64,000 nucleotides of DNA, from NCBI GenBank assembly GCA_900315675.1, contig OMZY01000013.1:700-64699 (forward strand), in the 5' to 3' direction. This document shows, one piece after another, positions 27,231-46,090 of the stretch. Every line of letters begins with the position of its first letter. The stretch's first letter is position 1. The notes under the pieces were generated by a model. That model searched no databases. It saw nothing but the letters and a program-made list of their open reading frames with translations, and had not been told where the DNA came from. The position numbers were made by a program, and so were the translations under genes. The stretch is from an uncultured Eubacteriales bacterium. Lineage in GTDB: Bacteria; Bacillota; Clostridia; Christensenellales; Aristaeellaceae.

Positions 27231-27269
27231 GCATTCATGCTCCTTCTGCAAACATTTGTTTGCTGCGAT

Positions 27270-27298
27270 GTTATAGCACTTTTCCACGCCCGGTACAA
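27270..27298 (-). promoter_or_regulatory. SigA-type promoter for the MATE gene
   Basis: TTGTAC-N17-TATAAC with TG extension. Confidence 0.55.
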
Positions 27299-27336
27299 TC
27301 AGTCTTCTGGTTGGTTTCTGTTCCATTTCAGGCATG

Positions 27337-29252: not shown

Positions 29253-30779
29253 TTAATATACTTGCGTTTCGCGGTACAGGTTGGGTTGGGATTCGATCAC
29301 GCCGTCGGACTCCACAAACTCGCCGAATGCGCCGAAGATGTAGTTCTCCGGATGCACGCGTCCCGTTTCCAGGCCGGCATGGCCGAAGGAACGTCCGACG
29401 TCATGCACACGCCGGGTATCGATGACAAAGAGCAGGGAATTCCCCGTCCAGCCGCGGCAGGCCATGTTCTTTTCCATGCAGCTGACCAGGTACAGGCCCG
29501 GACGGAGTTTGATAAAGGAAGCGGGTTCGTCGTAAGGTTCCCGTTCCACCAGTTCCTGCCAGGCCTTGGGGTCCGCGCCGGCCCAGCCCTTGTTCGCCGG
29601 CTGGGTCACACGCATATAGTCTGTAGCGTAATAAACGTGGATGATCTCCGTTCCCGGCGCATAATGCCAGTGGATGCGTTTGCCCAGCAGATCCGCCGTA
29701 TACTTGTGCCGCTTCTTCGGCAGCGGGAAACCGGGAACATCCAGGGCGCCGAAAAGGAACTTGCTGTCCACCATATAGGGGAACTTCGGATGATAGCCGG
29801 TAATGGTGGTAACCATCGTTACCAGACGCTCGTCCACGTCGATCACCAGGCTGATATTGGTCCGGGGCGTCCGCTCCTTCAGCTCAAAGTTCACAAAATA
29901 AACCCCGTCCTCCGCCTTGGCGCAGTCATAGTATTCCACAGTCTCCGGCTGGCCGAAGGCTCCCCACCGGAGGGTATGGCCGTCCAGGAAAGTCGCCGCG
30001 TACCGCACGCCGTCATCCATCGCCAGGGAATAATACCGGCCGGCCAGTTCAAAACAGAAGGGCTCCCGGTACTGGCTCATCCCCTCAAACTGCGGCTTTT
30101 CCTTCCGGATGCCGGCATAGGTTTCCGTTCGCGGCGCCGGCCGGCTGTCACTGACAGCAGTAAACCGGGCGCGGATAAACTTCCCGTTCTCCGCTTCATC
30201 CACCATCGCCACCGCGTAATCCGCATAGCTGATGTAGCTTTCGCCCGCGGTATTGAGGATAACAGTGTCGCCGCCGGTCACATAGGTACCGGTCTTGCGG
30301 CCCCGGGGATCAAAGAAGCAGGCGGGAGAGAAGAAGGTGTACTTCACGCCGCTCTTCTCCAGCAGCTGATACGCCCTGAACAGATCCATCGGATCCTTCC
30401 GGATTTCCTCCGGAAAGGAGTCGATCACCCGGCCGGTCTTTGTTTCATCCTGATACAGGCTGGCCGCGCCGCCGACCACCAGCAGCCGGACCTCCGGCAC
30501 CTTTTCAAAAATGCTGATCAGGTGAGCGTAGGCCTTCTGGTATGCGTCGTCCGGATGATTCCCGCCGAAGGGAAGCCCGAAGGTGCTGACCACCGCGTCA
30601 AACCCGCGGATGTCGTCCGCCGTCAGGTCAAACAGATCCTTCTCCAGGATCCTGTAGCGGCAGCCCGGCATCTTTTCCCTGTCCCGGATGATGGCCGTAA
30701 CGTCATGCCCGCGCTTATAGGCCTCATAGGCAATCAGCCTGCCCGATTTGCCGTTCGCGCCGATAATACCGATTTTCAT
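29253..30779 (-). CDS. NAD(P)H-binding (COG2910/YwnB-like) domain fused to MoaF-like domains
   Basis: GIIGANGKSG, RLLVVGGAASL, YTFFSPA, ISYADYAVAMVDE; then ELAGRYY...DLLGKRIHWHY...IHVYY. Confidence 0.75.
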   Translation of the reverse strand: MKIGIIGANGKSGRLIAYEAYKRGHDVTAIIRDREKMPGCRYRILEKDLFDLTADDIRGFDAVVSTFGLPFGGNHPDDAYQKAYAHLISIFEKVPEVRLLVVGGAASLYQDETKTGRVIDSFPEEIRKDPMDLFRAYQLLEKSGVKYTFFSPACFFDPRGRKTGTYVTGGDTVILNTAGESYISYADYAVAMVDEAENGKFIRARFTAVSDSRPAPRTETYAGIRKEKPQFEGMSQYREPFCFELAGRYYSLAMDDGVRYAATFLDGHTLRWGAFGQPETVEYYDCAKAEDGVYFVNFELKERTPRTNISLVIDVDERLVTMVTTITGYHPKFPYMVDSKFLFGALDVPGFPLPKKRHKYTADLLGKRIHWHYAPGTEIIHVYYATDYMRVTQPANKGWAGADPKAWQELVEREPYDEPASFIKLRPGLYLVSCMEKNMACRGWTGNSLLFVIDTRRVHDVGRSFGHAGLETGRVHPENYIFGAFGEFVESDGVIESQPNLYRETQVY

Positions 30780-30793
30780 ACTGGCTCCTCCCT

Positions 30794-32308
30794 TCAGACC
30801 GTGTAGAACGGCGGCTCGTTTTCAAGCGCGTCGTCCCCTTCCGGCGTCATATACTCACCGTAGGCGCCGAACAGGTAGTTTTCCGGCCGGTAGCTGGCCC
30901 CGCCGAACTGGCCTGTGTGGCCGAAGGACCTGCCCACGTCATGGAGCCGGTCTGTGTTCATCAGGAACAGCAGGCTGTTCCCGATCTTCCCCCGTTTCGA
31001 CATGCTCTGTTCCGTGAAACTGACCACGTACAGTCCTTCCCGGATCTTGACGTAGACAGCCTTCTCATCATAGGGATGCCCGGCCCAGCTCTCCAGATCA
31101 TCCGGTGACGGCGGGGTCATGCGCGCCAGGGCCTCCGGCGCGAAGGTGGCACGGACATAGTTCGGGTGGTAGTACACGTGGATAATGGCGAATTCCGGCC
31201 CGTAATGCCACTGAATCCGCTTGCCGACCAGGTCGCTGGTATATCCGTGCCGCTTTTCAGGCAGCGGATGTCCCGGCAGCACGATGGCGCCGAAATCGTA
31301 CACATGGTCGCACATCGTCGGGTATTCCTTCTTGTATCCCACATAGGTGTCCACCACGGTAACCAGGCGGGTCATCAGGTCCAGGATCAGGGTCACGTTG
31401 TGCCGGGGATCCGCGCCGGTGATCTCCAGGTTGACAAAATAAGCGAGATCGGCGCCCTTGGCACACTCATAGTGCTCCGTGTACCGGTTCTCCCCGCGAA
31501 TCATTTCCAGCGTGTCCCCGGTCAGGAACTTCACCAGGATATCGTCCGTCTGGTCCATTTTCAGGTGAAAATCCCGTCCCGCCAGCTCATAGTTCAGCGG
31601 CGGACGGTAGGTGCTGATCCCCTCGAAGACCGGCTTCCGGCGTTCTGTTCCGAAGTAGCCGTCCTTGTTGGGCGTCTTCTCGGAAGCCGCGGTCATCCGC
31701 TTCCGGATATGGTTCCCGTCCTCAATTTCATCCAACATTGCCGCGGCAAAGTCCGCGTAGCTCAGGTAGCTTTCTCCCTCGCTGTTGACCGTCACCTCAT
31801 TGCCTCCCAGGCGGTATTTTCCCGTCCGGGGCCCGTTCGGGTCAAAGGTCGCCGCCGGCGAAAAATAGGTCCAGTTCACCGCCGAGGTCTGCAACGTCTC
31901 AAAGGCGGCCTTCATATTGGCCGGCACCGCCTGCCACTGCTCCGGAATGCCCTCCAGGACCAGTTTCCTGTGCGACCGGTCCGTGTACAGACTGGCCGCG
32001 CCGCCGACCACCAGGAACCGCACCTCCGGCAGCTGCTCCATGACGCTGATCAGGTGCTTCATCGATGTCTGATGGCCTTTCGCGCTTTCCGGATCAAAGG
32101 CCGTGCCGAAGGCGTCCACCACCGCGTCAAAGTCCTTCAGGTCTTCCGCGGTCAGATCAAACAGATTCCGTTCCAGCACCGCCAGGGCTGGATTTGTGAT
32201 CTTTGAACGGTCCCGCACGATGGCCGTCACTTCATGGCGCCTGTAAAGCGCCTCCTCGGCGATGCAGCTTCCCGCCTTTCCCGAAGCGCCGATAATCCCT
32301 ATCTTCAT
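30794..32308 (-). CDS. NAD(P)H-binding (COG2910/YwnB-like) domain fused to MoaF-like domains
   Basis: Start MKIGIIGASGKAG at 32308 (ATGA overlap with MATE); VVGGAASL, WTYFSPA; ELAGRDF...DLVGKRIQWHY. Confidence 0.75.
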   Translation of the reverse strand: MKIGIIGASGKAGSCIAEEALYRRHEVTAIVRDRSKITNPALAVLERNLFDLTAEDLKDFDAVVDAFGTAFDPESAKGHQTSMKHLISVMEQLPEVRFLVVGGAASLYTDRSHRKLVLEGIPEQWQAVPANMKAAFETLQTSAVNWTYFSPAATFDPNGPRTGKYRLGGNEVTVNSEGESYLSYADFAAAMLDEIEDGNHIRKRMTAASEKTPNKDGYFGTERRKPVFEGISTYRPPLNYELAGRDFHLKMDQTDDILVKFLTGDTLEMIRGENRYTEHYECAKGADLAYFVNLEITGADPRHNVTLILDLMTRLVTVVDTYVGYKKEYPTMCDHVYDFGAIVLPGHPLPEKRHGYTSDLVGKRIQWHYGPEFAIIHVYYHPNYVRATFAPEALARMTPPSPDDLESWAGHPYDEKAVYVKIREGLYVVSFTEQSMSKRGKIGNSLLFLMNTDRLHDVGRSFGHTGQFGGASYRPENYLFGAYGEYMTPEGDDALENEPPFYTV

Positions 32309-33723
32309 TGGACAATTTCCTCCTCCAGATGATTGGTATGCGTTCTGTCCCCCATCCCTGCCAGCCGTCCGGCAGCCTCCATTCCGCGCAGGTGGCGGAA
32401 GAGGCTCACCGAAAGAATCACAGCCAGGAACGTGACCAGAATATCCGCGGCCGGCTGGGCGAACGCGAAGCCCGTAAGGCCGAACCGGTCTGGGAGCACC
32501 AGGAGCAGCGGCACATAGAAGATGAGCTGCCTTCCCAGCGTAATCAGCATGGCGCTGACAGATTTGCCCAGCGCCTGGAATGTAACGGTCAGCGTCAGCT
32601 GCAGTCCGACGAAGGGCATCGCGATACACAGCGCGCGCAGCATCATGCTTCCGACCCGAACCGTCGGTTCATGGTCGATAAAGAAACGGATCATATGATC
32701 CCCGCACAGCAGGAACAGCAGGTCAAACACACAGGCGACCGCCGTGGCCAGCAGGGCGGTGGTCCGGAAACCTTTCTTCAGCCGTGCATAGCTTCCCGCT
32801 CCGTAATTGTAGCCGGCAAAGGGCTGATAGCCGGTGGTCAGGCCCATGAGCAGCATCAGGCAGAGGGTGCCGACCCGAAGATAAACCCCGACACCCGCCA
32901 CCACCTCATCCCCGAAGGACGCGGCAATGTTGTTGCTCAGGATGGAAGTCCCGCTCATCACAATTTGGGACAGGGCTGCCGGCCCGCCGATCTTGAGGGT
33001 TTCCGCGTACACGGCCTTTCCCGGGCGGAAATACCGGGGCGAAAGGCTGAGCACCGAACGTCCCCGGAGAAATACGGAGAGAAAGAAAGCGACGGAGCAG
33101 ACAGAGCCGCAGACCGTGGCCAGCGCGGCGCCTGCCGTACCCATACGCAGGTAAATAATCAGGATCGGATCCAGGATGATATTGACAATCAGGCCCAGGG
33201 CCGTACCGGCCGTTGCCTGGCTTGTCGCCCCTTCGCTGCGCAGCTGTCCGCCGAGGGTCACCGTGAGGACCATGGGAATCACAAAGATTGAGATAATCCC
33301 GAAATAATCCGAAGCCGGCTGCCGGGTCACCGGGCTGACCCCGATCAGGTCCAGCAGCGGTCCGCGGAAAAGCAGGAGCAGCAGCGTCATGACGCCGCCG
33401 AGAATCACGGTGGTATAGCAGGCAGTCGCACAGGTTTCCCGGGCGGATTCCTTCTTCTTTGCTCCGAGCTGCCGGGAAATCAGACTGGCGGAACCGACCG
33501 CGAAGACGTTGCCGACGCCCTGGATAATATAGAACAGGGGCATGACCAGCGAGATTCCCGCCACCAGGGCCGGATCCCCCATCTGGCCGATAAAGTAGGT
33601 GTCCGTCATGTTGTAGACCATCTGAACCACCATGCCCAGCATGGTCGGCAGCGCCAGGCGCAGGATGCTCTGCATCACCGGTCCCCGCTCCATCATTTCC
33701 AGCCTGTCCTTCACGTCATTCAT
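32305..33723 (-). CDS. MATE family efflux transporter (MepA-like)
   Basis: LRLALPTMLGMVVQMVYNMTDTYFIG, NIILDPILI, GYQPFAGYNYGA. Confidence 0.92.
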   Translation of the reverse strand: MNDVKDRLEMMERGPVMQSILRLALPTMLGMVVQMVYNMTDTYFIGQMGDPALVAGISLVMPLFYIIQGVGNVFAVGSASLISRQLGAKKKESARETCATACYTTVILGGVMTLLLLLFRGPLLDLIGVSPVTRQPASDYFGIISIFVIPMVLTVTLGGQLRSEGATSQATAGTALGLIVNIILDPILIIYLRMGTAGAALATVCGSVCSVAFFLSVFLRGRSVLSLSPRYFRPGKAVYAETLKIGGPAALSQIVMSGTSILSNNIAASFGDEVVAGVGVYLRVGTLCLMLLMGLTTGYQPFAGYNYGAGSYARLKKGFRTTALLATAVACVFDLLFLLCGDHMIRFFIDHEPTVRVGSMMLRALCIAMPFVGLQLTLTVTFQALGKSVSAMLITLGRQLIFYVPLLLVLPDRFGLTGFAFAQPAADILVTFLAVILSVSLFRHLRGMEAAGRLAGMGDRTHTNHLEEEIVQ

Positions 33724-33733
33724 TCCTTTCCGG

Positions 33734-33767
33734 AAAAGGCAGAGCCCGCCTTTCGGCAGGCTCTGCC
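33734..33767 (-). terminator. Intrinsic terminator after the SBP gene
   Basis: GGCAGAGCCTGCC-GAAA-GGCGGGCTCTGCC-TTTT. Confidence 0.8.
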
Positions 33768-33792
33768 GGATTGATTCAGGTGTTTATATCTT

Positions 33793-35406
33793 TTACTGCG
33801 CAAGGAATTCCTTCAGCTGGGTTTTGCAGGCATCCAGGAGTTTTTCATATCCTGCTTCCTTCAGCAGGGAGATATACTCGTCCAGCTTCGCGTCCGTGTT
33901 GTCCCCGAAGACGCCCAGGTCAAAGGAAGTGGACCACTCGAGGCTGAGGGAGTTGATCGTGGCGGTGATGTCTTCCATGCCCTCCGTATCGAAGGTGAAG
34001 CCGTCGATCGGGAACCGGTCCATGGTAATGTTGTTGGCGTCAAACTGCGCACGGATCGCAAGCACTTCCGGCAGGATGCCGCCCACGGAGGGGTTCAGCT
34101 GGGTGCGCAGGCACCAGGCCCAGCCGCTCCAGGGATACTTCTCGGAATCGGGTCCGTTGGAACGGCTGCCGTCTTCACCGAGAATGTAATGCACGCCTTC
34201 AATACCGCCCTGCAGCAGGTTGGTGATGATGGAGTCGTTCTTCATGACGTCGATCGCCAGGCCCGCCCGTTCCGGATTCTTGCAGAAGGCGGTGATTGCC
34301 AGGGCGTCATAATTGTAGGGGGAGATCCGGGTACTGGCGTTCTCGGGCATGATGTTGAAGTATTCCGCGTCGTTGCCCTTTGCACGCTGCCGGATAATAT
34401 CCTCATTGGCGCTCTTGTACATGCAGATGTCGCTGGCGCTCTTGTCATCGTTGAACAGGTCGTTGATGTGGGTCACGTTGGTGATCGCGTTGGAAGGCCA
34501 TACGCCGTGCTTCGCCCAATCCACCATGCGATGGCAGTATTCACGGTATTCCTCGGTGAAGGTGCCGATGAACAGATCGTCCGGATTCAGGGTACCGTTG
34601 TCGGCATCCCAGTAGAAGTTGCCGACTGTCATCCAGTTGTTCGGTCCGGTCAGGAAGGTCAGGGTCATCGGGCTGGACGGGTTGGTGTACATCGCGTAGA
34701 TACCGCTGTCCTTCTCGTTTTCGGCGACCGCGTAGAGGTACTTCTCATAATCGTCGATGTTTTTGATTTCCGGGATGCCGTACTTTTCGCGCAGATCCTT
34801 GCGCACAACCACACCGTAGGTGTTGTCGTAGTCCGATTCGTTCCGCGGGATCTGGTACAGCTTGCCCTTATGCAGCGCCTGTTTCCAGCTGGAGGGTTCC
34901 TGAGACTTCATGGTCTCAGGCAGCCAGGTGTTCAGGAATTCTTCTGACAGCTCCATAAATGCGCCGTTGTCCGCCTGGGTGGCGAAGGGTCCGATGTAGG
35001 GGTGGGTCATGATAATGTCGCAGTCCGCACCGCCGGCCAGGACCAGGGGATACTTGGTCTGGAAATCAGATAGCGGGATGACGGAAACTTCGATCGTCGT
35101 GTTGATCAGCTGCTTCATCCGCTGGTTGGCCATATCAATCACTTTCCGGTGATCTTCTCCGTCCGAGCCGACCACGTAGAAGACCAGGTTGACCGGTTCG
35201 CTGGTGTCAAAGGAAGCCCAGGGGTTGTCTTCGGGTGCAATCGGCGCGCTCAGGTCCGCGTCCGCAGTCGCCACCTTGATGACTTTTCCGCTCACCTGGT
35301 TCAGCACCGTCTTGATTCCGTTTTCTTCCGTAATACCGTCCGCGAACACCGTGTTCAGCGAGAGCAGCATTGCCAGTGCCAGAACTGTTGCCAAGAGCCG
35401 TTTCAT
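33793..35406 (-). CDS. Carbohydrate ABC transporter substrate-binding protein (DUF3502-type)
   Basis: Signal peptide; GKLYQIP, VRKDLREKY, LLQGGIEGVHY, C-terminal GFTFDT...EAGYEKLLDACKTQLKEF. Confidence 0.88.
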   Translation of the reverse strand: MKRLLATVLALAMLLSLNTVFADGITEENGIKTVLNQVSGKVIKVATADADLSAPIAPEDNPWASFDTSEPVNLVFYVVGSDGEDHRKVIDMANQRMKQLINTTIEVSVIPLSDFQTKYPLVLAGGADCDIIMTHPYIGPFATQADNGAFMELSEEFLNTWLPETMKSQEPSSWKQALHKGKLYQIPRNESDYDNTYGVVVRKDLREKYGIPEIKNIDDYEKYLYAVAENEKDSGIYAMYTNPSSPMTLTFLTGPNNWMTVGNFYWDADNGTLNPDDLFIGTFTEEYREYCHRMVDWAKHGVWPSNAITNVTHINDLFNDDKSASDICMYKSANEDIIRQRAKGNDAEYFNIMPENASTRISPYNYDALAITAFCKNPERAGLAIDVMKNDSIITNLLQGGIEGVHYILGEDGSRSNGPDSEKYPWSGWAWCLRTQLNPSVGGILPEVLAIRAQFDANNITMDRFPIDGFTFDTEGMEDITATINSLSLEWSTSFDLGVFGDNTDAKLDEYISLLKEAGYEKLLDACKTQLKEFLAQ

Positions 35407-35471
35407 AGAATCCGTTCCTCCTTGTAATATAGATTTTTCTATTTCAAAGCGTTGCCGCTTTGGGTACGGGG

Positions 35472-36404
35472 TCAGCCCTTTACCGCGCCGATGACCAGGC
35501 CCTTGATGAAGAAGCGCTGCACAAAGGGATAAAGCAGGATGATCGGTCCGGTGGTGATCATGGTCATGGCCATCTTCAGGGTCTCCTGGGGCAGGTTCCT
35601 GGAGATCTGGCTCACATCCATGCCGGAGTTCACCAGGTTCTTCAGCGCCTGCATACTGTTGAGCATCTCCTGGAGGAAATACTGCAGGCTCTTGTACTCG
35701 TCCTTGGAGATAAAGAGCATGGAATTGTACCAGTCGTTCCAGTACGCCAGCGCGGCGAACAAGCCCAGGGTCGCGATCAGCGGCAGGGAAAGCGGGAGGA
35801 TCAGTCGGAAGAAGATCAGCAGGTCGTTCGCGCCGTCAATCTTGGCCGACTCGGTAATCTCATAGGGAATTCCTTTCATATAGTTCTTCGCAATGATCAT
35901 GTTCCATACGGAGAACATCAGAGGCAGGACCAGCGCGATGAAGTTGTTCTTGAAGCCCAGGTACCGGGTACACAGAATATACCAGGGCACCAGGCCGCCG
36001 TTGAACAGGGTGGTGAAGAAAAAGAACAGGGAGAACTTATTGCGCGGACGGAAGTCCGGGCGCTGGAGCACATACCCGGTCATGGTGGACAGCAGCACCG
36101 ACAGCGTTGTGCCGATCAGCGTGGCGCAGGTCGTGTTCCGGTAAGCCCAGAGGATCTTGTCGGGATTCCTGAAGGCCAGGTCGTATGCCTGGGTTGAAAA
36201 TTCCGCGATAAAGAAGGAATAGCCGTGATGCATCAGCGCGGATTCCGTCGTCAGGGAGGTGATGAATACCAGCAGGAACGGAAGCATACAGGCCAGGCCC
36301 ATAAGCGCGATCAGGATGTAGGAGATGATATTGAATACATACCGGTCCTTTTCTACAATTTTCCTTTGGGCGCCTTTGATGGCCTTCAGCGTTGTCATTG
36401 ACAT
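35472..36404 (-). CDS. Carbohydrate ABC transporter permease
   Basis: FNGGLVPWYI, EITESAKIDGA EAA loop, LAYWNDWY. Confidence 0.92.
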   Translation of the reverse strand: MSMTTLKAIKGAQRKIVEKDRYVFNIISYILIALMGLACMLPFLLVFITSLTTESALMHHGYSFFIAEFSTQAYDLAFRNPDKILWAYRNTTCATLIGTTLSVLLSTMTGYVLQRPDFRPRNKFSLFFFFTTLFNGGLVPWYILCTRYLGFKNNFIALVLPLMFSVWNMIIAKNYMKGIPYEITESAKIDGANDLLIFFRLILPLSLPLIATLGLFAALAYWNDWYNSMLFISKDEYKSLQYFLQEMLNSMQALKNLVNSGMDVSQISRNLPQETLKMAMTMITTGPIILLYPFVQRFFIKGLVIGAVKG

Positions 36405-36417
36405 ACCGGTTCCCTCC

Positions 36418-37365
36418 TCAGAACAGCGCGTAATCAGGATTCGCTTTCCTGATAATGCCGTTGACTGTCATGATGGTCACAAAGCACAGAACCGACTGAT
36501 AGAATCCCGCGGCGCTTGCCATACCCATATCGCTGGTGGACGCGAGGGCGCGGTAGACGTACAGGTCCAGGATATCCGTCTTCGGAAGCAGGAGGGCGTT
36601 GTTTCCGACCATCTGGTAGAAGAGGCCGAAATCTCCGCGGAACACTGCCCCGAGAGCGAGCAGGAACATGATCATCATCGTCGGGCGCAGGCCGGGCAGG
36701 GTAATATGCCGGATCCGTTTCCAGAAACCCGCGCCGTCAATCGACGCCGCCTCATACAGTTCCGGACTGATACCGGCAATGGACGCCATATAGACGATTG
36801 ATCCGTAGCCGGTGCCCTTCCACAGGTGCAGCATAATCAGCATGGCGGGCCAGGGATCCGCGCTGATATACAGGTTGATCCGCTCCAGGCCCATCCACTC
36901 CAGCACCCGGTTCAGCATGCCGTACTCATAGCCGAAGATCGCCTGCACCATGGCCGCGACAACGACCCAGGAGATGAAATAGGGCAGGAAGATGAAGGAC
37001 TGGAAGATCCGCTTGAACCACTTGACCCGGATTTCGTTGATCATGATGGCGAAACAGACCTGGATCACAATACCCAGAACAATGAACGCCAGGTTGTACA
37101 GCAGCGTGTTCCGGGTCAGGAACCACAGCTTGTGGGAATTAAACAGGAATTTGAAGTTCTTCAGGCCGACCCAGGGGCTTCCGAAGATTCCCTGAACGTA
37201 GTTATACTTCTTGAAAGCAATCACCAGGCCGCCCATGGGAACATAGGAAAAGAGAAGGGTATACAGCACCGCGGGAAGAATCATCAGATACAGAAACCGG
37301 TTATTGTAAAACCGGGTTCTTCCCGTTAAACGCCGATTGTTAACCACTGCAGGACGGATGCTCAC
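36418..37365 (-). CDS. Carbohydrate ABC transporter permease (LplB-like)
   Basis: IAFKKYNYVQGIFGSPWVGLKNF, LPYFISWVVV, ELYEAASIDGA. Confidence 0.92.
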   Translation of the reverse strand: MSIRPAVVNNRRLTGRTRFYNNRFLYLMILPAVLYTLLFSYVPMGGLVIAFKKYNYVQGIFGSPWVGLKNFKFLFNSHKLWFLTRNTLLYNLAFIVLGIVIQVCFAIMINEIRVKWFKRIFQSFIFLPYFISWVVVAAMVQAIFGYEYGMLNRVLEWMGLERINLYISADPWPAMLIMLHLWKGTGYGSIVYMASIAGISPELYEAASIDGAGFWKRIRHITLPGLRPTMMIMFLLALGAVFRGDFGLFYQMVGNNALLLPKTDILDLYVYRALASTSDMGMASAAGFYQSVLCFVTIMTVNGIIRKANPDYALF

Positions 37366-37668
37366 AGGACCACTCTCCTTCGCTGCTCTCGCTGCTTATG
37401 TGCTTCTCTCTTTACTTGCATTATAACCATCCGTTTTCCGGGCGAATCTCAAAAAAGCTGTTATCATCATCGAAATCCTGCTATGTTTTATCCGGTCAGT
37501 ATTTTTCCGGATTATACATGGCAGAATATCGAATACCGCAGCAGTATTTCAAAGAAAAAAGGCCCTCGGGCCTTTTCTGTATACAGGTCACAGGCTCTTC
37601 CGGACCGGAAAAATCACCGGAACCGAAAAAGCGCCGGAGAACATCTCTCCGGCGCTGCTTTTTCCCTT

Positions 37669-39477
37669 TTATGTCCGCACGGGCAGCCTGATGGTGATAG
37701 CCGTTCCCTTCCCTTCGGCGCTCTCATAACTCAGTCCCGCCCCGGGGCCATAGAGGCTGACCAGCCGGGAATTGATATTGCGCAGGGCATAGTGGCTGCC
37801 CGATTCCTCGTTGGCCTTTACGTCCTCAAGCTCCTCCCACAGCTGTTTCAGCCGTTCCGGCGTCATGCCGACGCCATCATCCTGTACCGTAATGCACAGT
37901 CCGTCGCCGTCATACCTGCCGGTCACACGGATCGTACCGCTGCGATCCGGTTTCTTGAGAATCCCGTGATGGATCGCGTTTTCCACCAGGGGCTGCAGGA
38001 TCAGGTGCGGCACCAGGCTCTGCTTCATCTCCTCCGGCACGTCAAAGATGAACTGAATCCTGTCCTCGTTCCGGATCTGCTGGATCTCACAGTAGAACCG
38101 CGTCAGCTCCAGTTCCTCCCGGACAGTCGCGTACTCGCTGCCGTAATTGAGACACCTCTTATAGAAACGGGACAGCAGAATAACGATGCGTTCCACCTGC
38201 TTCGCGTCGCCTACCATGGCGTAGTAATTGATCATCTCCAGGGTGTTGTACAGGAAATGCGGATTGATCTGTGCCTGGAGCGCTACCATCTCCGCGTGTT
38301 TCTGGCTTTCAGCCGCGAGCTTCTGCGCGTTCTTCAGCATGACCAGCTCGTCTGAAAGGTAATTGTAGCTCTCAATCAGCATACCGATTTCATCCTGGCG
38401 TTTCGTCCGGGGCAGCGGTTTCAGTTCTCCGTCCTTCAGGGCCGTCATCCCGTCGGAAACCATCGCGACCTTCTCCGTCATGTTTTTCGTGAAGGCCAGC
38501 GCGCCGACTGTAGCCGCCAGTCCCAGCAGCAGCGTAATGGCAATGATGACCAGCCACTGCCGGTTGCTGAAAATCAGTTTCCCCACGTCCATGACCCGGT
38601 AGGCATAAGCCAGGCGCCAGGGCGTACTCGCGACAGTCTCAATCCGCGCGACATAGTGATTCCCGCTGTCATCCAGCGTCATCCACCGGCCGAACTGGGA
38701 CACGTGGGTTTCGCTGATCCGCCGGACCAGCGTTTCCGGCAGCGTCTTTGCCCCCACAATCTGTTCCCCGTCGCGGGTCATCAGGAAGGCCCCGCACTCT
38801 CCGCCGATCAGCGACTGTTCCAGTGTCTGCTGGATATTCGCCGCGGAAAAATCAAAACGGATTACGGATACCGTAGACAGGATGCTGGCCGGATCACAGA
38901 CCCGCACCACACAGGAGAAGGGACTGTCCGTCAGGAATGAAACTTCCGAGTCATTCACGATCCAGTCTTTTTTGTAGGGTTCGGAAATCACCTTCCGGTA
39001 CCAGTCCATATTCTCAACCTGCCTGGCCGGAAAGATCCGACGGTTGTCCGTAAGGATATTCCGTTCCTGGGGAACGTAGACCTTCATGCTCATATTCCAG
39101 ATCTTCTCGTTGAGCACATAATCGAAGGTGGTGTTCATCAGCGCCTTGTCATGGGGCAGCTTCTGTGTATCCCAGTTTTCCGCGGGAGACTGAAGCAACG
39201 CCCGGACGTTGGCGTCCTGCAGCAGCAGGCAGATATCCTGCTGAACCACGTCCACACGGGTGGAAAACAGATCCAGCAGCTGGGAATAGGCATTCTGCGC
39301 ATTCTGTTCCTGGGATCTTGAAATGTTTTCCGCGCTGAAGCTGTTGAACAGTGAGGTGGACACCAGCAGCGGGACAAAAACAGAAAGCAGGACCAGCAGG
39401 GTCATCTTCGTTTTAAGCCGGCTGTCGCGGATCTTGCTGAAAAGCCATCTGAATCCCTTGTGCAGTACAGACTTCAT
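37669..39477 (-). CDS. YesM-type sensor histidine kinase
   Basis: Two TMs, HAMP, LQAQINPHFLYNTLE, LQPLVENAIHHG, VQDDGVG, GKGT. Confidence 0.92.
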   Translation of the reverse strand: MKSVLHKGFRWLFSKIRDSRLKTKMTLLVLLSVFVPLLVSTSLFNSFSAENISRSQEQNAQNAYSQLLDLFSTRVDVVQQDICLLLQDANVRALLQSPAENWDTQKLPHDKALMNTTFDYVLNEKIWNMSMKVYVPQERNILTDNRRIFPARQVENMDWYRKVISEPYKKDWIVNDSEVSFLTDSPFSCVVRVCDPASILSTVSVIRFDFSAANIQQTLEQSLIGGECGAFLMTRDGEQIVGAKTLPETLVRRISETHVSQFGRWMTLDDSGNHYVARIETVASTPWRLAYAYRVMDVGKLIFSNRQWLVIIAITLLLGLAATVGALAFTKNMTEKVAMVSDGMTALKDGELKPLPRTKRQDEIGMLIESYNYLSDELVMLKNAQKLAAESQKHAEMVALQAQINPHFLYNTLEMINYYAMVGDAKQVERIVILLSRFYKRCLNYGSEYATVREELELTRFYCEIQQIRNEDRIQFIFDVPEEMKQSLVPHLILQPLVENAIHHGILKKPDRSGTIRVTGRYDGDGLCITVQDDGVGMTPERLKQLWEELEDVKANEESGSHYALRNINSRLVSLYGPGAGLSYESAEGKGTAITIRLPVRT

Positions 39478-41033
39478 TTCAGATCCTCCGCCCGCCCGCT
39501 TGGCGCGAAGCCTTTCTGTTTCTTGAACGCGTAGGAGAAATAATTGCCGTTGCGGTAGCCGACCATCCGCGCAACGTCCTTCACCCGGTATTCCCCGCTT
39601 TCCATGATTTCCTGGGCTTTGTCAATCCGGATCCGGGTCAGGTAATCCCCCAGCGTGCAGCCGGTGACATTCCGGAAAAGATGGGCCAGGTAGGAGGACG
39701 ACAGGTGCATGTGCTCTGAAATCAGCCCGATGCTCAGCTCCGGATTCGCGTAATTCTGCTGGATATACCCGATGATCTTATTCACCACCGGATTGTCTGT
39801 ATAGTGGTTGTTCACCTTCTCATAATAATCCCGGATCACGCCGAGCGTGTACTGGTGCAGCTCGTCCAGGAAGCGGCAGCTCCGCAGCCGGTCCAGCATC
39901 CGGTATTCATCCATCGGGAGATCAAACAGCAGGATGTTCTCCTTTTCGGCCTCCCGATACATGCGCATAATAATCGAATAATAGAACCGGTGTACGTCCG
40001 AGGGCAGCGTCCCATCATTCATCTTCAGCTGCGCGGCAAGATTGTTCAGCATGGAGACAATCATCTCGCTGTTTTCCTTCTGCAGCGCGTGCGAATAAGC
40101 CGAGAGCGGGATCTCATTCAGATCCAGGCTCCGGGGCTTTTCCTCCTGGGACAGGATGAGGCACCCCGGTTCCCGGTAATAATACCGGAGCAGCGACTGC
40201 ATTGCGGACTGATAGGATCTGTACAGCTGGGAAGCGTCCCGGACAAATCGGCCGATCACGTGGCAGCAGATCACCTGCCGCTGCGCCAGGTAATCCGTAA
40301 TCTGTTCAAAGAGCGGCGCAAGCACCGCTGTCTTTTTCTGGGTTTCATCCGTGCAGAGGATGTGGAAAACCAGCCTGTTCTCGTCCTGGAAAAAGCACAT
40401 GCCAATTCCGGCGTTCCCGAAGGCAGGCATCAGGGCTGAAAACAGTTCCTCCGGGGAGCCAAGCCCGCCCCGGTCCGACGGAAAGAGCTGGGTGATCCCG
40501 GCAGCAAACAGGCAGAAGGATTTCTCCTTAAAATACTCCTTCAACGCCTGCACGGCTTCCGGATGGTTTTCTTCATTGATCAGGCTTTTCGCGATGGAAG
40601 TCTGCCGGGCGAAGAGACTCTTGGCCCGAAGCTCCTCCCGGTCCAGGCTTACCTGGTAACGGTTGGTGATCTCCTCTGCGGCCGTCCGGATATCCGCGGT
40701 CAGTTCCGCGATATCGATCGGTTTTTCCACATAACTAACCGCCCTGAGGCGAATTGCGCTGCGCAGGTACGGGACGTCCGAATACCCGCTGATAAAGATC
40801 ACTTTCGCCTCCGGGTTGTGGTAAAGGTATTCCTCCGCCAGCTTGATGCCGTCCAGGCCGGGCATACGGATATCCGTCACCAGGATATCCGGCTTGAATA
40901 CGCGTATCACGTTCAGTGCCCTCTCGCCGTCATCGCAGACTTCCAGCTGGTCAATCCCGATCTCCTGCCAGTTGATCTGTAACCGAATTCTTTCGCGTAC
41001 AAAAGATTCATCGTCAACCAACAATAGTTTCAT
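39474..41033 (-). CDS. YesN-type response regulator with AraC HTH
   Basis: LLLVDDE, VTDIRMPGLDG, C-terminal LSSSYLAHLF...VGYRNGNYFSYAFKK. Confidence 0.93.
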   Translation of the reverse strand: MKLLLVDDESFVRERIRLQINWQEIGIDQLEVCDDGERALNVIRVFKPDILVTDIRMPGLDGIKLAEEYLYHNPEAKVIFISGYSDVPYLRSAIRLRAVSYVEKPIDIAELTADIRTAAEEITNRYQVSLDREELRAKSLFARQTSIAKSLINEENHPEAVQALKEYFKEKSFCLFAAGITQLFPSDRGGLGSPEELFSALMPAFGNAGIGMCFFQDENRLVFHILCTDETQKKTAVLAPLFEQITDYLAQRQVICCHVIGRFVRDASQLYRSYQSAMQSLLRYYYREPGCLILSQEEKPRSLDLNEIPLSAYSHALQKENSEMIVSMLNNLAAQLKMNDGTLPSDVHRFYYSIIMRMYREAEKENILLFDLPMDEYRMLDRLRSCRFLDELHQYTLGVIRDYYEKVNNHYTDNPVVNKIIGYIQQNYANPELSIGLISEHMHLSSSYLAHLFRNVTGCTLGDYLTRIRIDKAQEIMESGEYRVKDVARMVGYRNGNYFSYAFKKQKGFAPSGRAEDLK

Positions 41034-41305
41034 ACCAATCCCCTATCCCCGGCTGTATATGGAAAAAGCGTTTCCTGTTCCTGTCCGCGTTTTCAGTTTT
41101 TCCGTCAGTCGGGATATCTTCCGTTGAAATTTTATTTATCATATCACAACCATACAAAAAGAAAAAGGCCTCTGCGCTTTGCGATATAAGCATGACAGTC
41201 GCTGTCAGATCCCATGGCAATTATATCCCGGCATTCTCCCAAGACCCGGACGCCTGTATCACATACTCAAAAAAGAGGAGCTTGTGCTCCTCTTTGTATT
41301 GGCTT

Positions 41306-43669
41306 TTACATATTACAGACAAGATTCGCCAGGATCTGGAATCCGGCCGCACCCCAGCTGCCCGCAAAGCCGGGCATGATGCCGAAGAAGGGGCTGCCCC
41401 CAAGTTTCATGCCGTCGCAGAAGCGGCGGGCGATTTCCTTCGCTAGTTCCGTCTTGCCGGCGCTGTACAGGCCGGTAGCAATCAGCAGGTTTTCCGACGC
41501 GCTGGGGCCGCCGTTGCCGTATCCATTCATGGAGAAATCCCGGCTGGTCAGGCGCTGGCTCAGCAAGCCGTAGGGGCTCAGGTAGTTTCCTTCCTCTGCC
41601 AGGTCTGCGGCCATTTTATCAATGATCTCCTGCGGCAGACGTTTCCCAAGCACCAACGGACGGTAGAACATGATAGCCGCCGTATCGATCACCTCGTGCG
41701 TGCCGTCCACCCGGCCGATGAAGCGCTCCCCGTTCCAGAAGTGGTCGATCATCTTCCGGATCAGATCATTTGATTTCACAGCCCAGTTCTTGCACTCCGC
41801 CTCATCCTTCCCAAGGATCTGTCCCAGCTTTCCGATGTATTCATACAGCAGCGCCAGGAAAGCGCTCAGGTCCGGCAGCTCCACCATGTGATGATCCCGG
41901 GTGATGGCGGTGCCGTCGTTGCCGGTTTCATCCCCATGCTCATAGTTCGGAATGCCGTCCCCGTCGTTGTCCCGGTACAGCGTAAACCAATCCGCCCAGC
42001 GGGCATAGCCGTCATACATCCACTCCAGCTTGTCCCGCGGGACCTCCTTCCTAAAGTCGTGTTCCCGCATCAGGATATCCAGCGCCCACCCCTGAACCGG
42101 CGGCTTGATCTGGCCGAGCACCGCCCGGCCGTCGCCATACAGATCCGCCAGCTGGCCGGACGGAGCCTGCCAGTCCAGCATGTTCAGCATCAGTTCAATT
42201 GCCACGGGCAGGTTATTTTTCAGCACCACTGCGTTCTCGCACATCTGCCACTCGGAAGCGCAGAAGGTGGCGCCCATGTACATATAAGGTCGTTTGATCC
42301 GACCGCTGGGGCTCATCAGATGGGTCCAGGTCATCCAGGCGGCCTTCTCCCGCTCCTCGGCGTAGTGCGCGCTGAGCGGCGGCTGTTTCGCCAGGAAAGA
42401 TTCCCAGTCGTTCCGGACTTTCTCCAGGCCTTCCTCATAGCTGTAAAGGCTTTCACGCTCCACGCCCGCGTGGTCGAAGTCCTCCACGGACAGGAGCAGT
42501 TCTCCGCTTTCGTCCGGCAGGAAATCGCCCTTCACAACGGGGGTGGACAGCTTTTCCCAGTCCCAGTCCGCTCTGATATCCGCCTTTCCCTTCCAGGGTG
42601 TGAACACAATGCTCGCCGTACGCAGGAACACCGCTTCCCAGGATTTTTTTCCCCGGGGCTTCATCATCTCATGGGAAGTCAGGTTCCCGTCGATCCGGAT
42701 TCCCAGGCCGTTCTCGCTCCGGAACAGCATGAGGTTCTCCTCCGGGAAGCAGACGCGGATGTTGCCGTGCTGCGTGCGGATCAGAAGCTCCGTGGGTGTT
42801 GTCAGCAGGGAGTAAGGCACCTTATGCCCCTCAAAGACAGGAGAAATATCGAACAGCCTGCTGCTGGGCACGATGCGGCGCAGTGCACCGTCCCGGCGGG
42901 AACCCAGATAGAGCTTCGCGGCGCCGTATCCGCTGCCGCCTCCCCCGTTGAACAGGCCCATCCAGCAGCCCTGCCGGGTATAGGCGTTCATCCCCAGGGC
43001 GATGAAGTTCTTGCCGTCGTTCTTGAACTTCGACTCGGACACCGCCGTGAACCGCGCGCGGATAAACGAGCGGTTCTCCATCTCGTCCACCACGGCCAGG
43101 GCGTAGTCCTCATAGGTGATGTAGCTCATGTTCATGGCGTTCTTGATGGCTACATCCGTGCCGAGGGTATAGGTGCCCACGCCCCTGCTGCCCGCATCGA
43201 AGAACTCGGCGGGACTCACGAAGGTGTAGTTCACCCTGCTGGCCGCCAGCTTCAGGTAGGCGTCGAACATCTTCCGCGGCACGACGCTGAACTCCGGTGA
43301 CATGTCGTCGATCAGCCGGCGGGTGCGGGTTTCATCCGTGAACAGGCTGGCCGCGCCGCCCACCACTATCAGGCGGACATCGGGGATCGGCTCCATAATC
43401 CGGATCATATGCTCCATGACCAGCACGTGCTGGTTCTCATTGCCAGGTTTGCCGAAATTGGTGCCGAAGGCGTTGACCACGACGTCAAATCCGCGCAGGT
43501 CCTCCGTGGTCAGCTCAAAAATATCCTTGGCAATCACGGGATAACTTTCTTCCAGCCGATGAACCGAAGCGGGACGCGTGACCGCCGTCACTTCGTATCC
43601 CCTTTTCTTCGCTTCCCGGGCAATCAGCTTACCCGCTTTGCCTGTTGCACCGATAACTGCTACTTTCAT
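41306..43669 (-). CDS. NAD(P)H-binding domain fused to a GH63/MGH1-like (alpha/alpha)6 domain
   Basis: AVIGATGKAG, IVVGGAASL; later GQLAD...IKPPVQGWAL, RDNDGDGIPNYEHGDETG, PDLSAFL, WNGERF. Confidence 0.7.
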   Translation of the reverse strand: MKVAVIGATGKAGKLIAREAKKRGYEVTAVTRPASVHRLEESYPVIAKDIFELTTEDLRGFDVVVNAFGTNFGKPGNENQHVLVMEHMIRIMEPIPDVRLIVVGGAASLFTDETRTRRLIDDMSPEFSVVPRKMFDAYLKLAASRVNYTFVSPAEFFDAGSRGVGTYTLGTDVAIKNAMNMSYITYEDYALAVVDEMENRSFIRARFTAVSESKFKNDGKNFIALGMNAYTRQGCWMGLFNGGGGSGYGAAKLYLGSRRDGALRRIVPSSRLFDISPVFEGHKVPYSLLTTPTELLIRTQHGNIRVCFPEENLMLFRSENGLGIRIDGNLTSHEMMKPRGKKSWEAVFLRTASIVFTPWKGKADIRADWDWEKLSTPVVKGDFLPDESGELLLSVEDFDHAGVERESLYSYEEGLEKVRNDWESFLAKQPPLSAHYAEEREKAAWMTWTHLMSPSGRIKRPYMYMGATFCASEWQMCENAVVLKNNLPVAIELMLNMLDWQAPSGQLADLYGDGRAVLGQIKPPVQGWALDILMREHDFRKEVPRDKLEWMYDGYARWADWFTLYRDNDGDGIPNYEHGDETGNDGTAITRDHHMVELPDLSAFLALLYEYIGKLGQILGKDEAECKNWAVKSNDLIRKMIDHFWNGERFIGRVDGTHEVIDTAAIMFYRPLVLGKRLPQEIIDKMAADLAEEGNYLSPYGLLSQRLTSRDFSMNGYGNGGPSASENLLIATGLYSAGKTELAKEIARRFCDGMKLGGSPFFGIMPGFAGSWGAAGFQILANLVCNM

Positions 43670-43687
43670 CTCTATCCGCCTCCTTCC

Positions 43688-46090
43688 TCAATGGTTGCAG
43701 CACAGGTCCGCCAGGGCGATATAAGCGGTGGCAGGCCAGCTGCCGGCCATGCCCGCGCCCCGGGAGCCGGAGAACGGATCCATGACCATGGAGAAAGTGC
43801 CGTCCCGGATGGCAGTGCAGTACCGCAAAGCGATTTTCTTTGCCAGTTTTTCCTCGCCTGCGTCATACAGGCCGTACAGGATCATCAGGTTCACAGGAGC
43901 CCAGATGCCGCCGCAGCAGGAGCCGCCCAGGCGGAAGTTCTCGCTGCTCAGCTTTTCGCTTGCCAGGCCGTAGTTCGTCAGCCAGTCCCCTTCCTCGCTC
44001 AGATCCTCCGCCATTTTCCGGATAATCTCCGGCGGCAGGCGTTTCCCAAGCACCAGGGGCATATAGTAGAGGATGGAATCGGTCTTCACTTCCTCATGGG
44101 TTCGGTTCACCAACGCGATGAAGCGCTCGCCGTTCCAGAAAGTTTTGATCATCCGGTCAATAATCTCCCGGGAACGGGTATACCATTCCTCACAGACAGC
44201 GCTATCCAGTTTCAGCATTCCGGCGAGATCACCGAGGACTTCGAACAGCAGCCCCAGGTAGGCGCACAGGTCCGGCGTCTCCATGACCGGAGCGTATTTG
44301 AACACAGAGTTGTCGTCCAGGCCCGCGTCATCCCCGTGCTCATACTGAGGAATGCCGTCGCGGTCGTCGTCCCTGTATTTCATAAACCAGTTTCCCCAGG
44401 CAGCCAGGCCGTCATACAGGTACTGCAAATCCTTCGGGGCCATTTCCGCAGCCAGGTCATGGTATTTCATGATCCATTTGAGGGCCCAGCCCTGGACCGG
44501 CGGCTTGATGGACTGCCAGCAGCCGTAGGAATCGTCATAAAAATCCGGAAGCTGGCCCTGGGGGCTGGCCTCATCCAACGGAATCATCATGAAATCCATG
44601 GCCATTCTCAGATCCCGGTGCAAAGCCACCGCATGATGGGACAGCTGCCACTGGGAGCCACAGAAATTGCTGAACATATACATCATCGGACGGCGGATCC
44701 GTCCGGCGGGATTGACGATATGGGAATAGAGAATGTAGGCAGCCTCGTCTCGGCGTTCGTCCAGCGCGGCGTCAAAGTGCGGGATATTCGCCAGGAAGGC
44801 TTCCCAGTCCGCGTTCGCGTCCGCAAGGGCCTCCTCATAGGTTGGATAGGTTTCCCGGACCCGCTGGCTGAACTCGCTTTCGTCCACGGCCAGCAGGAAG
44901 CGCCCGTTCTCATCCGGAGTAATAAAACCCTCCACAAACGGCGTAGTCATCTTTTCCAGATCCCATGGTGCATGCATGTCGATGGAGCCCTCCAGGGGAT
45001 TGAGCAGCAGGCAGCAGCCGCGCCAGTTGTTCATGCTCTCCCAGGCCTTGTCTCCCCGAGGCTTCATCATCTCATGGGCGACGTAGTCCTTGCGCACCCG
45101 CAGGGACAGACCCCGTTCGCCTTTGATATAGAGCATGTCGCTCTCAGCGAAGCAGCAGCGGATTTCCCCGTAAGCCGTGCGCAGGATCAGCTCCGTGGGC
45201 GAAGTAATAACCGCAAACTCGACGGTTCGCCCCTGCCATACCGGTGCAATCTGCAGCAGTTCCGCCACGCCGTCATCCGGCTCGATGTTCCCCCGCAGGC
45301 TGTTCAGACACAGCATGCCGCCGGCGTAATTCAGGCTGCCCCGTGCCCGCCGGTTGCCCGGCTTTCCGGAGAACACGCCGAAGTGCCCGCCCCTGCGCTT
45401 GAATGGTATGGCCGTAATATCGAAAGTCATACGCTCAATGTAGTTATAGCTTGTATCGGAAACGGCGGTAAACCGTCTGCCTTCAAACTGTTTCCGGCCG
45501 ATCTCATCGACCATGGCCACCGCGTAGTCTGCATAGGAAATATAGCTCCTGCCTTCAGGATTCATGATCCGTACATCGGTGGTTGTAATATAGTGCCCTG
45601 TCCGTTTTCCTGCAAAATCAAACTGCTCGGCAGGGCTGAAATAGGTCCAGTTAACACTGCTCTTCTTCAATTTCCCGAAGGCTTCCATCATCGCGACGGG
45701 AACCGCTCGGTAAGATTCCGGAATATTCTCCAGGACCAGGGATGTTTTGGTTTCATCCGTATACAGGCTGGCCGCGCCGCCCACCACCATCAGGCGGACC
45801 TCCGGTAGCGGCTCCAGGATTTCAATCAGGTGATCCATGGCGGCAACATGCTGCCCGGCTGCCCCGGGACTGCCCATGGGCGTGCCGAAGGCGTCCACCA
45901 CCACGTCAAATGCTTTCAGGTCCTCGGACGTCAGATCAAAGAGATCGCGATTCAATACGCTGTAATCCCCCTGCAGACGGGCCTGCGCGTCCCCGCGCAC
46001 AATGGCGGTCACCTCGTAACCGCGCAGCCTTGCTTCCGCTGCAATCAGCCCCCCGGCTCTGCCCGCCGCGCCGATAACAGCAATTCTCAT
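43688..46090 (-). CDS. NAD(P)H-binding domain fused to a GH63/MGH1-like (alpha/alpha)6 domain
   Basis: AVIGAAGRAG, MVVGGAASL; later GQLPD...IKPPVQGWAL, RDDDRDGIPQYEHGDDAGLDDNS, PDLCAYL, GIWAP. Confidence 0.72.
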   Translation of the reverse strand: MRIAVIGAAGRAGGLIAAEARLRGYEVTAIVRGDAQARLQGDYSVLNRDLFDLTSEDLKAFDVVVDAFGTPMGSPGAAGQHVAAMDHLIEILEPLPEVRLMVVGGAASLYTDETKTSLVLENIPESYRAVPVAMMEAFGKLKKSSVNWTYFSPAEQFDFAGKRTGHYITTTDVRIMNPEGRSYISYADYAVAMVDEIGRKQFEGRRFTAVSDTSYNYIERMTFDITAIPFKRRGGHFGVFSGKPGNRRARGSLNYAGGMLCLNSLRGNIEPDDGVAELLQIAPVWQGRTVEFAVITSPTELILRTAYGEIRCCFAESDMLYIKGERGLSLRVRKDYVAHEMMKPRGDKAWESMNNWRGCCLLLNPLEGSIDMHAPWDLEKMTTPFVEGFITPDENGRFLLAVDESEFSQRVRETYPTYEEALADANADWEAFLANIPHFDAALDERRDEAAYILYSHIVNPAGRIRRPMMYMFSNFCGSQWQLSHHAVALHRDLRMAMDFMMIPLDEASPQGQLPDFYDDSYGCWQSIKPPVQGWALKWIMKYHDLAAEMAPKDLQYLYDGLAAWGNWFMKYRDDDRDGIPQYEHGDDAGLDDNSVFKYAPVMETPDLCAYLGLLFEVLGDLAGMLKLDSAVCEEWYTRSREIIDRMIKTFWNGERFIALVNRTHEEVKTDSILYYMPLVLGKRLPPEIIRKMAEDLSEEGDWLTNYGLASEKLSSENFRLGGSCCGGIWAPVNLMILYGLYDAGEEKLAKKIALRYCTAIRDGTFSMVMDPFSGSRGAGMAGSWPATAYIALADLCCNH

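Follow-up and report, generated by a model that had tools for sequence, protein, structure and literature searches.

A 64,000-nucleotide window of contig OMZY01000013.1 (assembly GCA_900315675.1), from an uncultured Eubacteriales bacterium, contains a locus in which one NAD(P)H-binding domain, here termed the N-domain, forms the N-terminal part of four proteins built on two unrelated scaffolds. Two of these proteins continue into MoaF double barrels, and two into barrels resembling those of glycoside hydrolase family 63 (GH63). Both architectures are common and uncharacterised. What is new here, and what raises the value of the finding, is that the active site of the GH63-like part has been remodelled and that a small flavoprotein recurs as a putative partner of the fusions. 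One specialised reductase domain on two unrelated scaffolds, together with this recurrent flavoprotein, points to a redox step, so far undescribed, within the degradation of some plant-derived glycoconjugate. Reduction of a reactive intermediate remains what we infer to be the best reading of the fusions, and both fusion types are promising places to look for new enzyme chemistry.

Four fusion proteins with a common N-terminal domain

The original prediction, made from the window's nucleotide sequence and translated reading frames, was that four genes share a paralogous N-terminal domain of ∼215 amino acids (aa). Minus-strand open reading frames (ORFs) are present at all four positions, each with such a domain of ∼212 aa, and Pfam agrees with the assignment. 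NAD_binding_10 (PF13460) is found at residues 7–194 in each of the four proteins, with E-values between 1.6e-8 and 1.7e-19 and scores of 35–71 bits against a cut-off of 27.2. The first two genes, at 29253..30779 (508 aa; N-domain at 30135–30779) and 30794..32308 (504 aa), continue as proposed into MoaF N/C double barrels. Both match the Pfam families MoaF and MoaF_C (PF10703 at 60 and 40 bits, cut-off 23.3; PF17409, borderline at 21 and 24 bits, cut-off 22.1), and Foldseek aligns the MoaF part with 4q51, a structural-genomics MoaF, at 4e-16 (phmmer, 4e-5). The last two genes, at 41306..43669 (787 aa, B-type) and 43688..46090 (800 aa, A-type), continue into GH63/MGH1-like barrels, with matches to MGH1-like_GH in Pfam (E 6.9e-16 and 2.2e-27, respectively) and to YgjK in Foldseek. 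In the A-type protein, the N-domain occupies residues 1–212, a β-sandwich residues ∼230–410 and an (α/α)6 barrel residues ∼418–800. AlphaFold2 predictions made with family alignments scored highly for the MoaF fusion (predicted local distance difference test, pLDDT, 92.3; predicted template modelling score, pTM, 0.87) and for the A-type GH63 fusion (pLDDT 91.8, pTM 0.88). The ORF of the 504-aa protein reaches further upstream, to 32629 (GTG). As a start codon, the ATG at 32308 is preferable, because MKIGIIGASGKAG resembles the paralogues and because this codon forms an ATGA overlap with the stop of the upstream MATE transporter gene.

The four N-domains align over 217 columns, 66 of them invariant, with 51–52% identity to the first domain and 53% identity between the two GH63-linked copies. 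Within the genome the paralogues match one another at E 1e-62 to 9e-66, a likeness that is therefore far beyond chance. The glycine motif GxxGxxG at residues 7–13 (G7, G10 and G13 in the A-type protein) reads GANGKSG, GASGKAG, GATGKAG and GAAGRAG in the four proteins. It is accompanied by VVGGAASL, (Y/W)T(F/Y)(F/V)SPA and (I/L)(S/T)Y(A/E)D(Y/F)AxAxxDE; all motifs quoted in the prediction are thus present, except that the third never starts with the V that had been allowed there. Arg32, at the end of strand 2, is kept in all four N-domains. In Rossmann folds, an arginine at this position points to NADP(H), and the Arg or Lys that follows strand 2 in the N-domains suggests NADP(H) as the cofactor. 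The conserved Tyr–Lys pair of short-chain dehydrogenases/reductases (SDRs) was not found in the alignment of the four N-domains.

The closest known proteins are the YwnB-like/COG2910 proteins (NAD_binding_10, atypical SDRs; 4R01, 3EW7 and 3H2S) and human biliverdin IX-beta reductase (BVR-B)/flavin reductase (1HDO), which have the fold and length of the N-domain (template modelling score, TM, 0.85–0.91). Among solved structures the best relative is 4R01 (6e-46; Foldseek TM 0.87–0.91), a ‘putative NADH-flavin reductase’ that stands alone at 210 aa and that the N-domain family profile matches at 6.6e-60; biliverdin IX-beta reductase is among the more distant ones. GxxGxxG, GGAxSL and SPA are common to the N-domain and the YwnB-like proteins, and neither has the SDR Tyr–Lys pair. 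Unlike those proteins, the N-domain always stands here at the N-terminus of a larger protein, of 500 or 800 aa, and 14 of its positions (P95, P130, S143, D157, Y182 and M192 among them) are conserved in both fusion types and not in stand-alone proteins. The genome has no stand-alone copy: the whole 3.6-Mb assembly contains four N-domains, each of them fused and each in this locus. The four N-domains belong to a single, specialised subfamily of atypical SDRs resembling YwnB and BVR-B.

That the domain is normally a stand-alone protein of ∼210 aa, as had been assumed, is borne out when 1.84 billion representatives at 50% identity are searched with the N-domain by itself: among the best 150 of 2252 matches, most are stand-alone proteins of 200–235 aa. 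Equally, a Rossmann domain is absent from the solved structures of GH63 and MoaF proteins. Most members of the fused families retain GxxGxxG and an Arg or Lys at position 32, and in A-type orthologues the N-domains are 53–62% identical, as against 38–61% for the barrels. No N-domain position was found to be conserved differently between the GH-type and the MoaF-type. The pattern agrees with the transfer of a single specialised N-domain subfamily to a second scaffold, under equal constraints on both, and the N-domain behaves as a portable module.

Other arrangements of the domain were also encountered. The metagenomic protein P0105 (JGI, 658 aa) has three tandem YwnB-like N-domains, with GxxGxxG at residues 4, 226 and 449, and in other relatives the N-domain is joined to acidic proline-rich tails, follows a membrane segment at the N-terminus or is extended by a further C-terminal part of ∼160 aa.

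Origin of the fusions

Repeated recruitment of the module, which was thought to have been fused four times, is not what the N-domain phylogeny supports. In a maximum-likelihood tree of 145 N-domains (52 GH63-fused, 50 MoaF-fused and 43 stand-alone), those of the GH-type form one clade and those of the MoaF-type another, with support values of 91 and 90 in the Shimodaira–Hasegawa-like approximate likelihood ratio test (SH-aLRT); each of these clades also contains one or two short sequences, probably fragments. A third clade takes most of the stand-alone proteins (38 of 43). Since each architecture has a single N-domain clade, there were at most two old fusions, followed by duplications of whole fused genes, and the tree rejects four independent recruitments.

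The four N-domains of the window fall in four well-supported subclades, alongside orthologues from other genomes. The A and B types of the GH63 fusion are old orthogroups, and their tandem order is repeated in the relatives' loci L001 (793 and 784 aa) and L002 (797 and 785 aa). The relation among the three clades is a polytomy (SH-aLRT 88–91). The shared derived residues favour a single origin of the GH-type and MoaF-type N-domains, without proving it.

A remodelled active site in the GH63-like proteins

The closest known proteins for the barrel part are the GH63 inverting α-glycosidases, represented by Escherichia coli YgjK, the Thermus mannosylglycerate hydrolase (MGH; 2Z07/4WVA) and the Mycolicibacterium glucosylglycerate hydrolase (MhGgH; 5OHC). 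In Foldseek, residues ∼215–800 of the 800-aa protein match the sandwich and barrel of YgjK (4e-23), and what lies between Rossmann domain and barrel is therefore the usual N-terminal domain of GH63, not a linker. Alignment of the family profile to YgjK with hhalign (probability 99.1%, 558 columns) equates D324, D501 and E727 of YgjK with Q482, D592 and M768 of the 800-aa protein.

The two sides of the active site have fared differently. Like YgjK, the fused proteins have the acid Asp in a G-x-D-(D/N) loop, as well as the DxDxDG loop. The general acid, D592, aligned with YgjK D501 and MhGgH D182, is kept in at least 90% of a 52-sequence family alignment and is invariant in a 7-sequence alignment. 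Unlike in GH63, the position of YgjK D324 (MhGgH D43) is occupied by Gln in 52 of the 52 family members. The general base Glu (YgjK E727, MhGgH E419), which belongs to the motif F-x-E-x-Y-x-P-x-TG, is also missing, being replaced by Met in the A-type protein, elsewhere by Leu, and by His in one clade (L009, L010 and the protein P0097). In the B-type protein, the D324 position reads WQ and the acid loop GNDGT, and the loop that would bear the E727 equivalent has lost five residues. Alignments to the Thermus MGH and to MhGgH (wild type and E419A) give the same picture: the G-x-D-D loop falls on the general acid, Met or Leu lies opposite the general base Glu, and five base-bearing residues are deleted in the B-type. 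According to their PDB titles, D324N and E727A are glycosynthase mutants of YgjK; both lost residues therefore belong to the water side of the active site.

The nearest unfused homologues are MGH1-like proteins of Paenibacillus, Bacillus salipaludis and Brevibacillus (n = 4; loci L013–L016), which are 31–33% identical over sandwich and barrel and whose genes likewise lie near ATP-binding cassette (ABC) importers and YesM/N-type regulators. These proteins differ in having no N-domain, in being encoded by single genes and in retaining all three GH63 acidic residues (WD, GWDNS and MAENF); they score 190 bits against PF22422, compared with 59–97 bits for the fused proteins. It was therefore the N-domain-carrying clade that changed its active site. 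The GH63-like parts are thus not ordinary glycosidases, with both base-side residues gone and the acid kept. As judged from these alignments, the base-less family cannot act as textbook inverting glycosidases, and a fused GH63-like protein would be either a pseudo-glycosidase for substrate recognition or an enzyme with new chemistry.

The window genome has a third MGH1-like protein, of 483 aa and without an N-domain (contig C19:110244–111152, locus L094). A single-sequence hhalign comparison with YgjK, at a probability of only 63%, puts Gln at E727, and the canonical base may be absent here too.

New chemistry could take the form of direct participation of the cofactor in glycoside cleavage, with the nicotinamide occupying the former place of the catalytic water and bases. 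Tightly bound NAD(P)+ might transiently oxidise the sugar so that the aglycone is eliminated, as in GH4 and GH109, or an NADPH hydride might trap the oxocarbenium made by the retained acid Asp (reductive cleavage). We consider such participation unlikely. It would agree with the replacement of the base-side residues by uncharged Gln and Met in the N-domain-carrying clade only, with retention of the acid Asp, with the age and stability of the fusion, with the strong constraint on the N-domain and with the high pTM of the models, which suggests a fixed domain arrangement. Against it, the same N-domain is also found on MoaF barrels, which are not glycosidases, the N-domain lacks the SDR Tyr–Lys pair for alcohol oxidation, and the cofactor of GH4 and GH109 is NAD+, not the NADP(H) that Arg32 suggests. 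In those two families the NAD+ lies inside the catalytic domain near sugar C3, with a catalytic Tyr/His base and, in GH4, Mn2+. There is no sequence or fold relation to them, and the Rossmann domain is here a separate BVR-B-like unit. In its full form, which seems to us improbable, the idea would make the fused GH63-like proteins a new class of non-hydrolytic, nicotinamide-assisted glycoside-processing enzymes, in which Asp to Gln and Glu to Met make room for the nicotinamide ring. The acid Asp would cleave the bond, hydride transfer or transient oxidation would replace water attack, and the MoaF fusions would apply the same reductase to the next intermediate of the pathway.

Loss and decay of the N-domain

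In some relatives the N-domain is absent or lacks its glycine motif, as in members of L007, L008, L011 and L095. The redox step had been described as tightly coupled to both reaction types, which is too strong a statement in view of these exceptions. Within the GH-type clade, a subclade (P0078–P0091, P0095 and P0099) has GAETALG or GMTALLG in place of the glycine motif and has also lost Arg32 and GGAASL; such degenerate N-domains are seen at L008:2065–4395 and L095:8001–10328. B-subunits without any N-domain occur in L007, L008 and L095. In L008 and L095 the A-subunit N-domain is degenerate as well, which leaves the pair without an intact nicotinamide site. In L011, from an Oscillospiraceae metagenome-assembled genome (9839–15668), both GH63-like subunits are without N-domain, and the bases are still missing.

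Since base-less barrels persist without an intact N-domain, the core barrel function is independent of the fused cofactor. The idea that this cofactor is essential to barrel chemistry is weakened by L008, L095 and L011, and direct participation in cleavage is hard to reconcile with the same three loci. A dispensable N-domain argues for an accessory role, and against one that is essential as in GH4.

The same exceptions would suit an N-domain that is not catalytic at all and that serves as a structural, oligomerisation or NmrA-like redox-sensing module, regulating or assembling the C-terminal enzymes. A whole subclade keeps the domain despite the loss of glycine motif and Arg32, some B-subunits do without it, and the A/B tandem pairs suggest hetero-oligomers. 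We give this alternative only a small chance: GxxGxxG, Arg/Lys32, GGAASL and SPA are retained across most of both families, the degenerate clade lies within intact ones, which indicates secondary loss, and the consistent flavoprotein neighbour suggests electron transfer.

A recurrent flavoprotein neighbour

In the window, a gene for a PNPOx/Nim-like split-barrel flavoprotein of 133 aa (47806..48207, minus strand) lies between the permease genes and the binding-protein gene of an ABC importer, upstream of the A-type fusion. Its best solved match is 2IG6, of the NimC/NimA family (4e-12). A PNPOx_N-family gene adjoins N-domain proteins in six loci from different genomes (the window, L002, L004, L006, L089 and L091), which cover both fusion types; in L006, from Spirochaetia, it directly precedes a lone GH63 fusion. 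The adjacency is unlikely to be due to chance, because the window genome has only three PNPOx_N genes. The 133-aa flavoprotein may be the real redox partner.

In a variant of such a partnership, the N-domain would be an NAD(P)H:flavin reductase feeding reduced flavin mononucleotide (FMN) to the Nim/PNPOx-like protein, which would be the true substrate reductase, and the fusion would localise the supply. The adjacency in six loci is in keeping with this, as are the annotation of the closest solved relatives as NADH-flavin reductases and the flavin reductase activity of BVR-B. The ‘NADH-flavin reductase’ names, however, come from structural-genomics annotation and not from assays, several loci are without the flavoprotein, and the choice of these two scaffolds for fusion is left unexplained. 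On balance the variant is doubtful.

Other neighbours that recur in relatives are YesM/N-type regulators, ABC importers with binding proteins of ∼530 aa, and MATE pumps. Esterases (BD-FAE, COesterase and GDSL/CE2) flank the GH63-like pairs in L001, L008 and L095.

Fused and free MoaF barrels

The MoaF part of the fusions has the double β-barrel of the Burkholderia cenocepacia MoaF (4Q51; PF10703/PF17409), and MoaF domains in the window genome are confined to this locus. The invariant polar residues of the fused type are Y284, C286, K288, E299, R306, D314, R357, H358 and R368, and further on H381, Y383, Y416, D417, E436, S464, E478, N479 and Y480. With so many such residues, the fused MoaF barrel looks like an enzyme.

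Two free MoaF N+C paralogues are encoded directly downstream of the fusions, also on the minus strand. One, at 28359..29237 (292 aa), is 27% identical to the fused MoaF part; the other, at 27514..28398, has 294 aa when counted from its GTG, and its true start may lie further downstream. The two ORFs overlap by 40 nucleotides with the GTG at 28398, and the downstream gene probably starts later. A core of G233, H358, W371, H381, E436 and E478 is common to the fused type and most of the free paralogues compared. The fused type differs from the free proteins in its own invariant polar set (C286, K288, E299, R306, R357, R368, Y416, D417, S464 and N479), in two insertions and in the N-terminal reductase domain. 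The window's free paralogues share only the core with it (H358, W371, H381, E436 and E478) and lack both insertions; the 292-aa protein is without C286, K288, E299, R306, R357, R368, S464 and N479. A literature search for the MoaF family returned no relevant paper. MoaF is presumably related to phenolic acid decarboxylase within the calycin superfamily.

A proposed accessory reductase in an import–process–export locus

The reading we prefer, tentatively and at somewhat less than even odds, is that an accessory NADPH reductase and a flavoprotein act on the electrophilic product of non-canonical C-terminal enzymes in a locus for import, processing and export. The ABC importers would bring in a plant-type glycoconjugate, on which the C-terminal modules would perform the primary, non-canonical chemistry. 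The GH63-like A/B pair would bind or cleave the glycoside without normal inverting hydrolysis, and the MoaF barrels would convert the released moiety. The N-domain would be an accessory NADPH-dependent hydride donor, probably working with the small flavoprotein, and would reduce an electrophilic product or aglycone (of the carbonyl, quinone or quinone-methide type) at its site of formation. Export of the product would fall to the MATE pumps. Being accessory in this scheme, the reductase could decay or vanish in some lineages.

BVR-B-type enzymes reduce bound planar electrophiles such as flavins, biliverdin IX-beta and quinones without catalytic residues. A similar logic is seen where a GH88/GH105 unsaturated glucuronyl hydrolase, an (α/α)6 enzyme relying on an acid Asp only, frees a reactive keto-sugar, which KduI/KduD then process, a nicotinamide-dependent reductase reducing it. 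The analogy is one of logic; no sequence relation was found, although no search aimed at one was made, the reductase of that system is a separate classical SDR, and nothing here indicates uronate substrates.

Several points weigh against an accessory reductase acting with a flavoprotein. The flavoprotein gene is missing from L001, L007, L008 and L011, and L009 and L010, which belong to the clade with His in place of E727, have housekeeping-gene surroundings and no transporter. Moreover, an accessory reductase alone does not explain the loss of the water-activating residues. The phenolic-aglycone theme draws on weak context, namely esterases, MATE, MarR, one URO-D-like gene and the presumed fold relation of MoaF to phenolic acid decarboxylase; the esterases, MarR, MATE and URO-D-like genes, with the gut and termite habitat, weakly hint at an acylated or phenolic glycoside as substrate. 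The sensor kinase, two importers and two exporters of the locus offer a route to inducer and substrate, and this makes the question experimentally tractable.

Distribution and novelty of the two architectures

The original prediction regarded the combination as a strong candidate for an undescribed pathway architecture. This stands insofar as no characterised member was found in PDB, NCBIfam or the literature searched, but the architectures are not rare. When 5.8 billion proteins were searched with the 800-aa query and clusters were counted at 90% identity, about 100 of these had both Pfam domains or full-length coverage; the 508-aa architecture, with NAD_binding_10 and MoaF, is represented by more than 110 clusters. 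In their sources the proteins bear generic names (‘NAD(P)H-binding protein’, ‘putative NADH-flavin reductase’ or ‘hypothetical’). The four fusions, the free MoaF proteins and the binding proteins of the locus all lack a specific model in NCBIfam, and no solved structure in PDB spans both parts of either fusion.

Carriers of the fusions include Clostridia, Oscillospiraceae, Lachnospiraceae, Eubacteriales, Treponema and Spirochaetia, and the samples come from ruminant and buffalo rumen, from caecum and hindgut, and from chicken, human and termite gut. Both architectures are thus widespread among gut anaerobes of herbivores, humans and termites. In the order to which the window belongs, the fused GH63 pair is rare and of patchy occurrence: 2 of 301 species genomes have it, and two further genomes from the window's genus lack it. 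This absence suggests that the catabolic locus is perhaps accessory DNA.

Locus organisation and independence of the two modules

Every gene from 50089 down to 25818 is on the minus strand. In the locus, two independent catabolic modules flank one two-component system of the YesM/YesN type. Both are import–process–export modules and come under this single sensor. The first module (50089 to 41306) comprises importer 2, the Nim/PNPOx-like flavoprotein and the A/B pair of GH63-like fusions. The two permeases of this ABC importer are encoded at 48265–49155 and 49181–50089, and its solute-binding protein (527 aa) at 46184..47767. A gap lies between the B-type fusion and the gene for the AraC-type response regulator (39474–41033), which forms the two-component system (37669..41033) with a dCache/HAMP/His_kinase sensor (37669–39477). 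Just past the kinase gene is a strong terminator-like hairpin (37630..37656, minus strand) with a 12-bp stem, 8 GC pairs and a T tail, and this hairpin divides the regulator unit from the downstream unit of importer, MATE and MoaF genes. An Rfam scan of 25000–51500 returned no RNA element.

The second module (37365 to ∼25818) begins with importer 1 (33793..37365), whose permeases are encoded at 36418–37365 and 35472–36404 and whose solute-binding protein, of 537 aa and with DUF3502, is encoded at 33793–35406. There follow a MATE efflux transporter (MATE 2, 32305..33723, 472 aa), the two MoaF fusions, the two free MoaF genes and, at the downstream end of the unit, a second MATE efflux transporter (MATE 1, 25818..27335, 505 aa).

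The distribution of the two modules in other genomes speaks for their independence. The genome that carries L002 (G153) has the GH63 pair without MoaF, and four genomes of another family (f26) carry two free MoaF genes clustered with two fused ones, and no fused GH63 protein; the MoaF-cluster genomes G116 and G090 have unfused or distant GH63-like homologues only. One obligatory pathway made up of both modules is ruled out by G153 and the four f26 genomes. The only relative found with adjacent GH63-like and MoaF genes, as in the window, is L011, where a free MoaF gene comes directly after the GH63-like pair and precedes a URO-D-like gene and a GH3.

In the genome G140 (L089:16315–17915), a stand-alone N-domain gene of 217 aa lies directly downstream of a free MoaF gene, in the order opposite to that of the fusion. 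Just outside the locus, at 21259–24023 on the minus strand of the window, are two genes for redoxin/AhpC-TSA-domain proteins; one of these proteins (490 aa) also has several 4Fe-4S binding motifs, an unusual combination.

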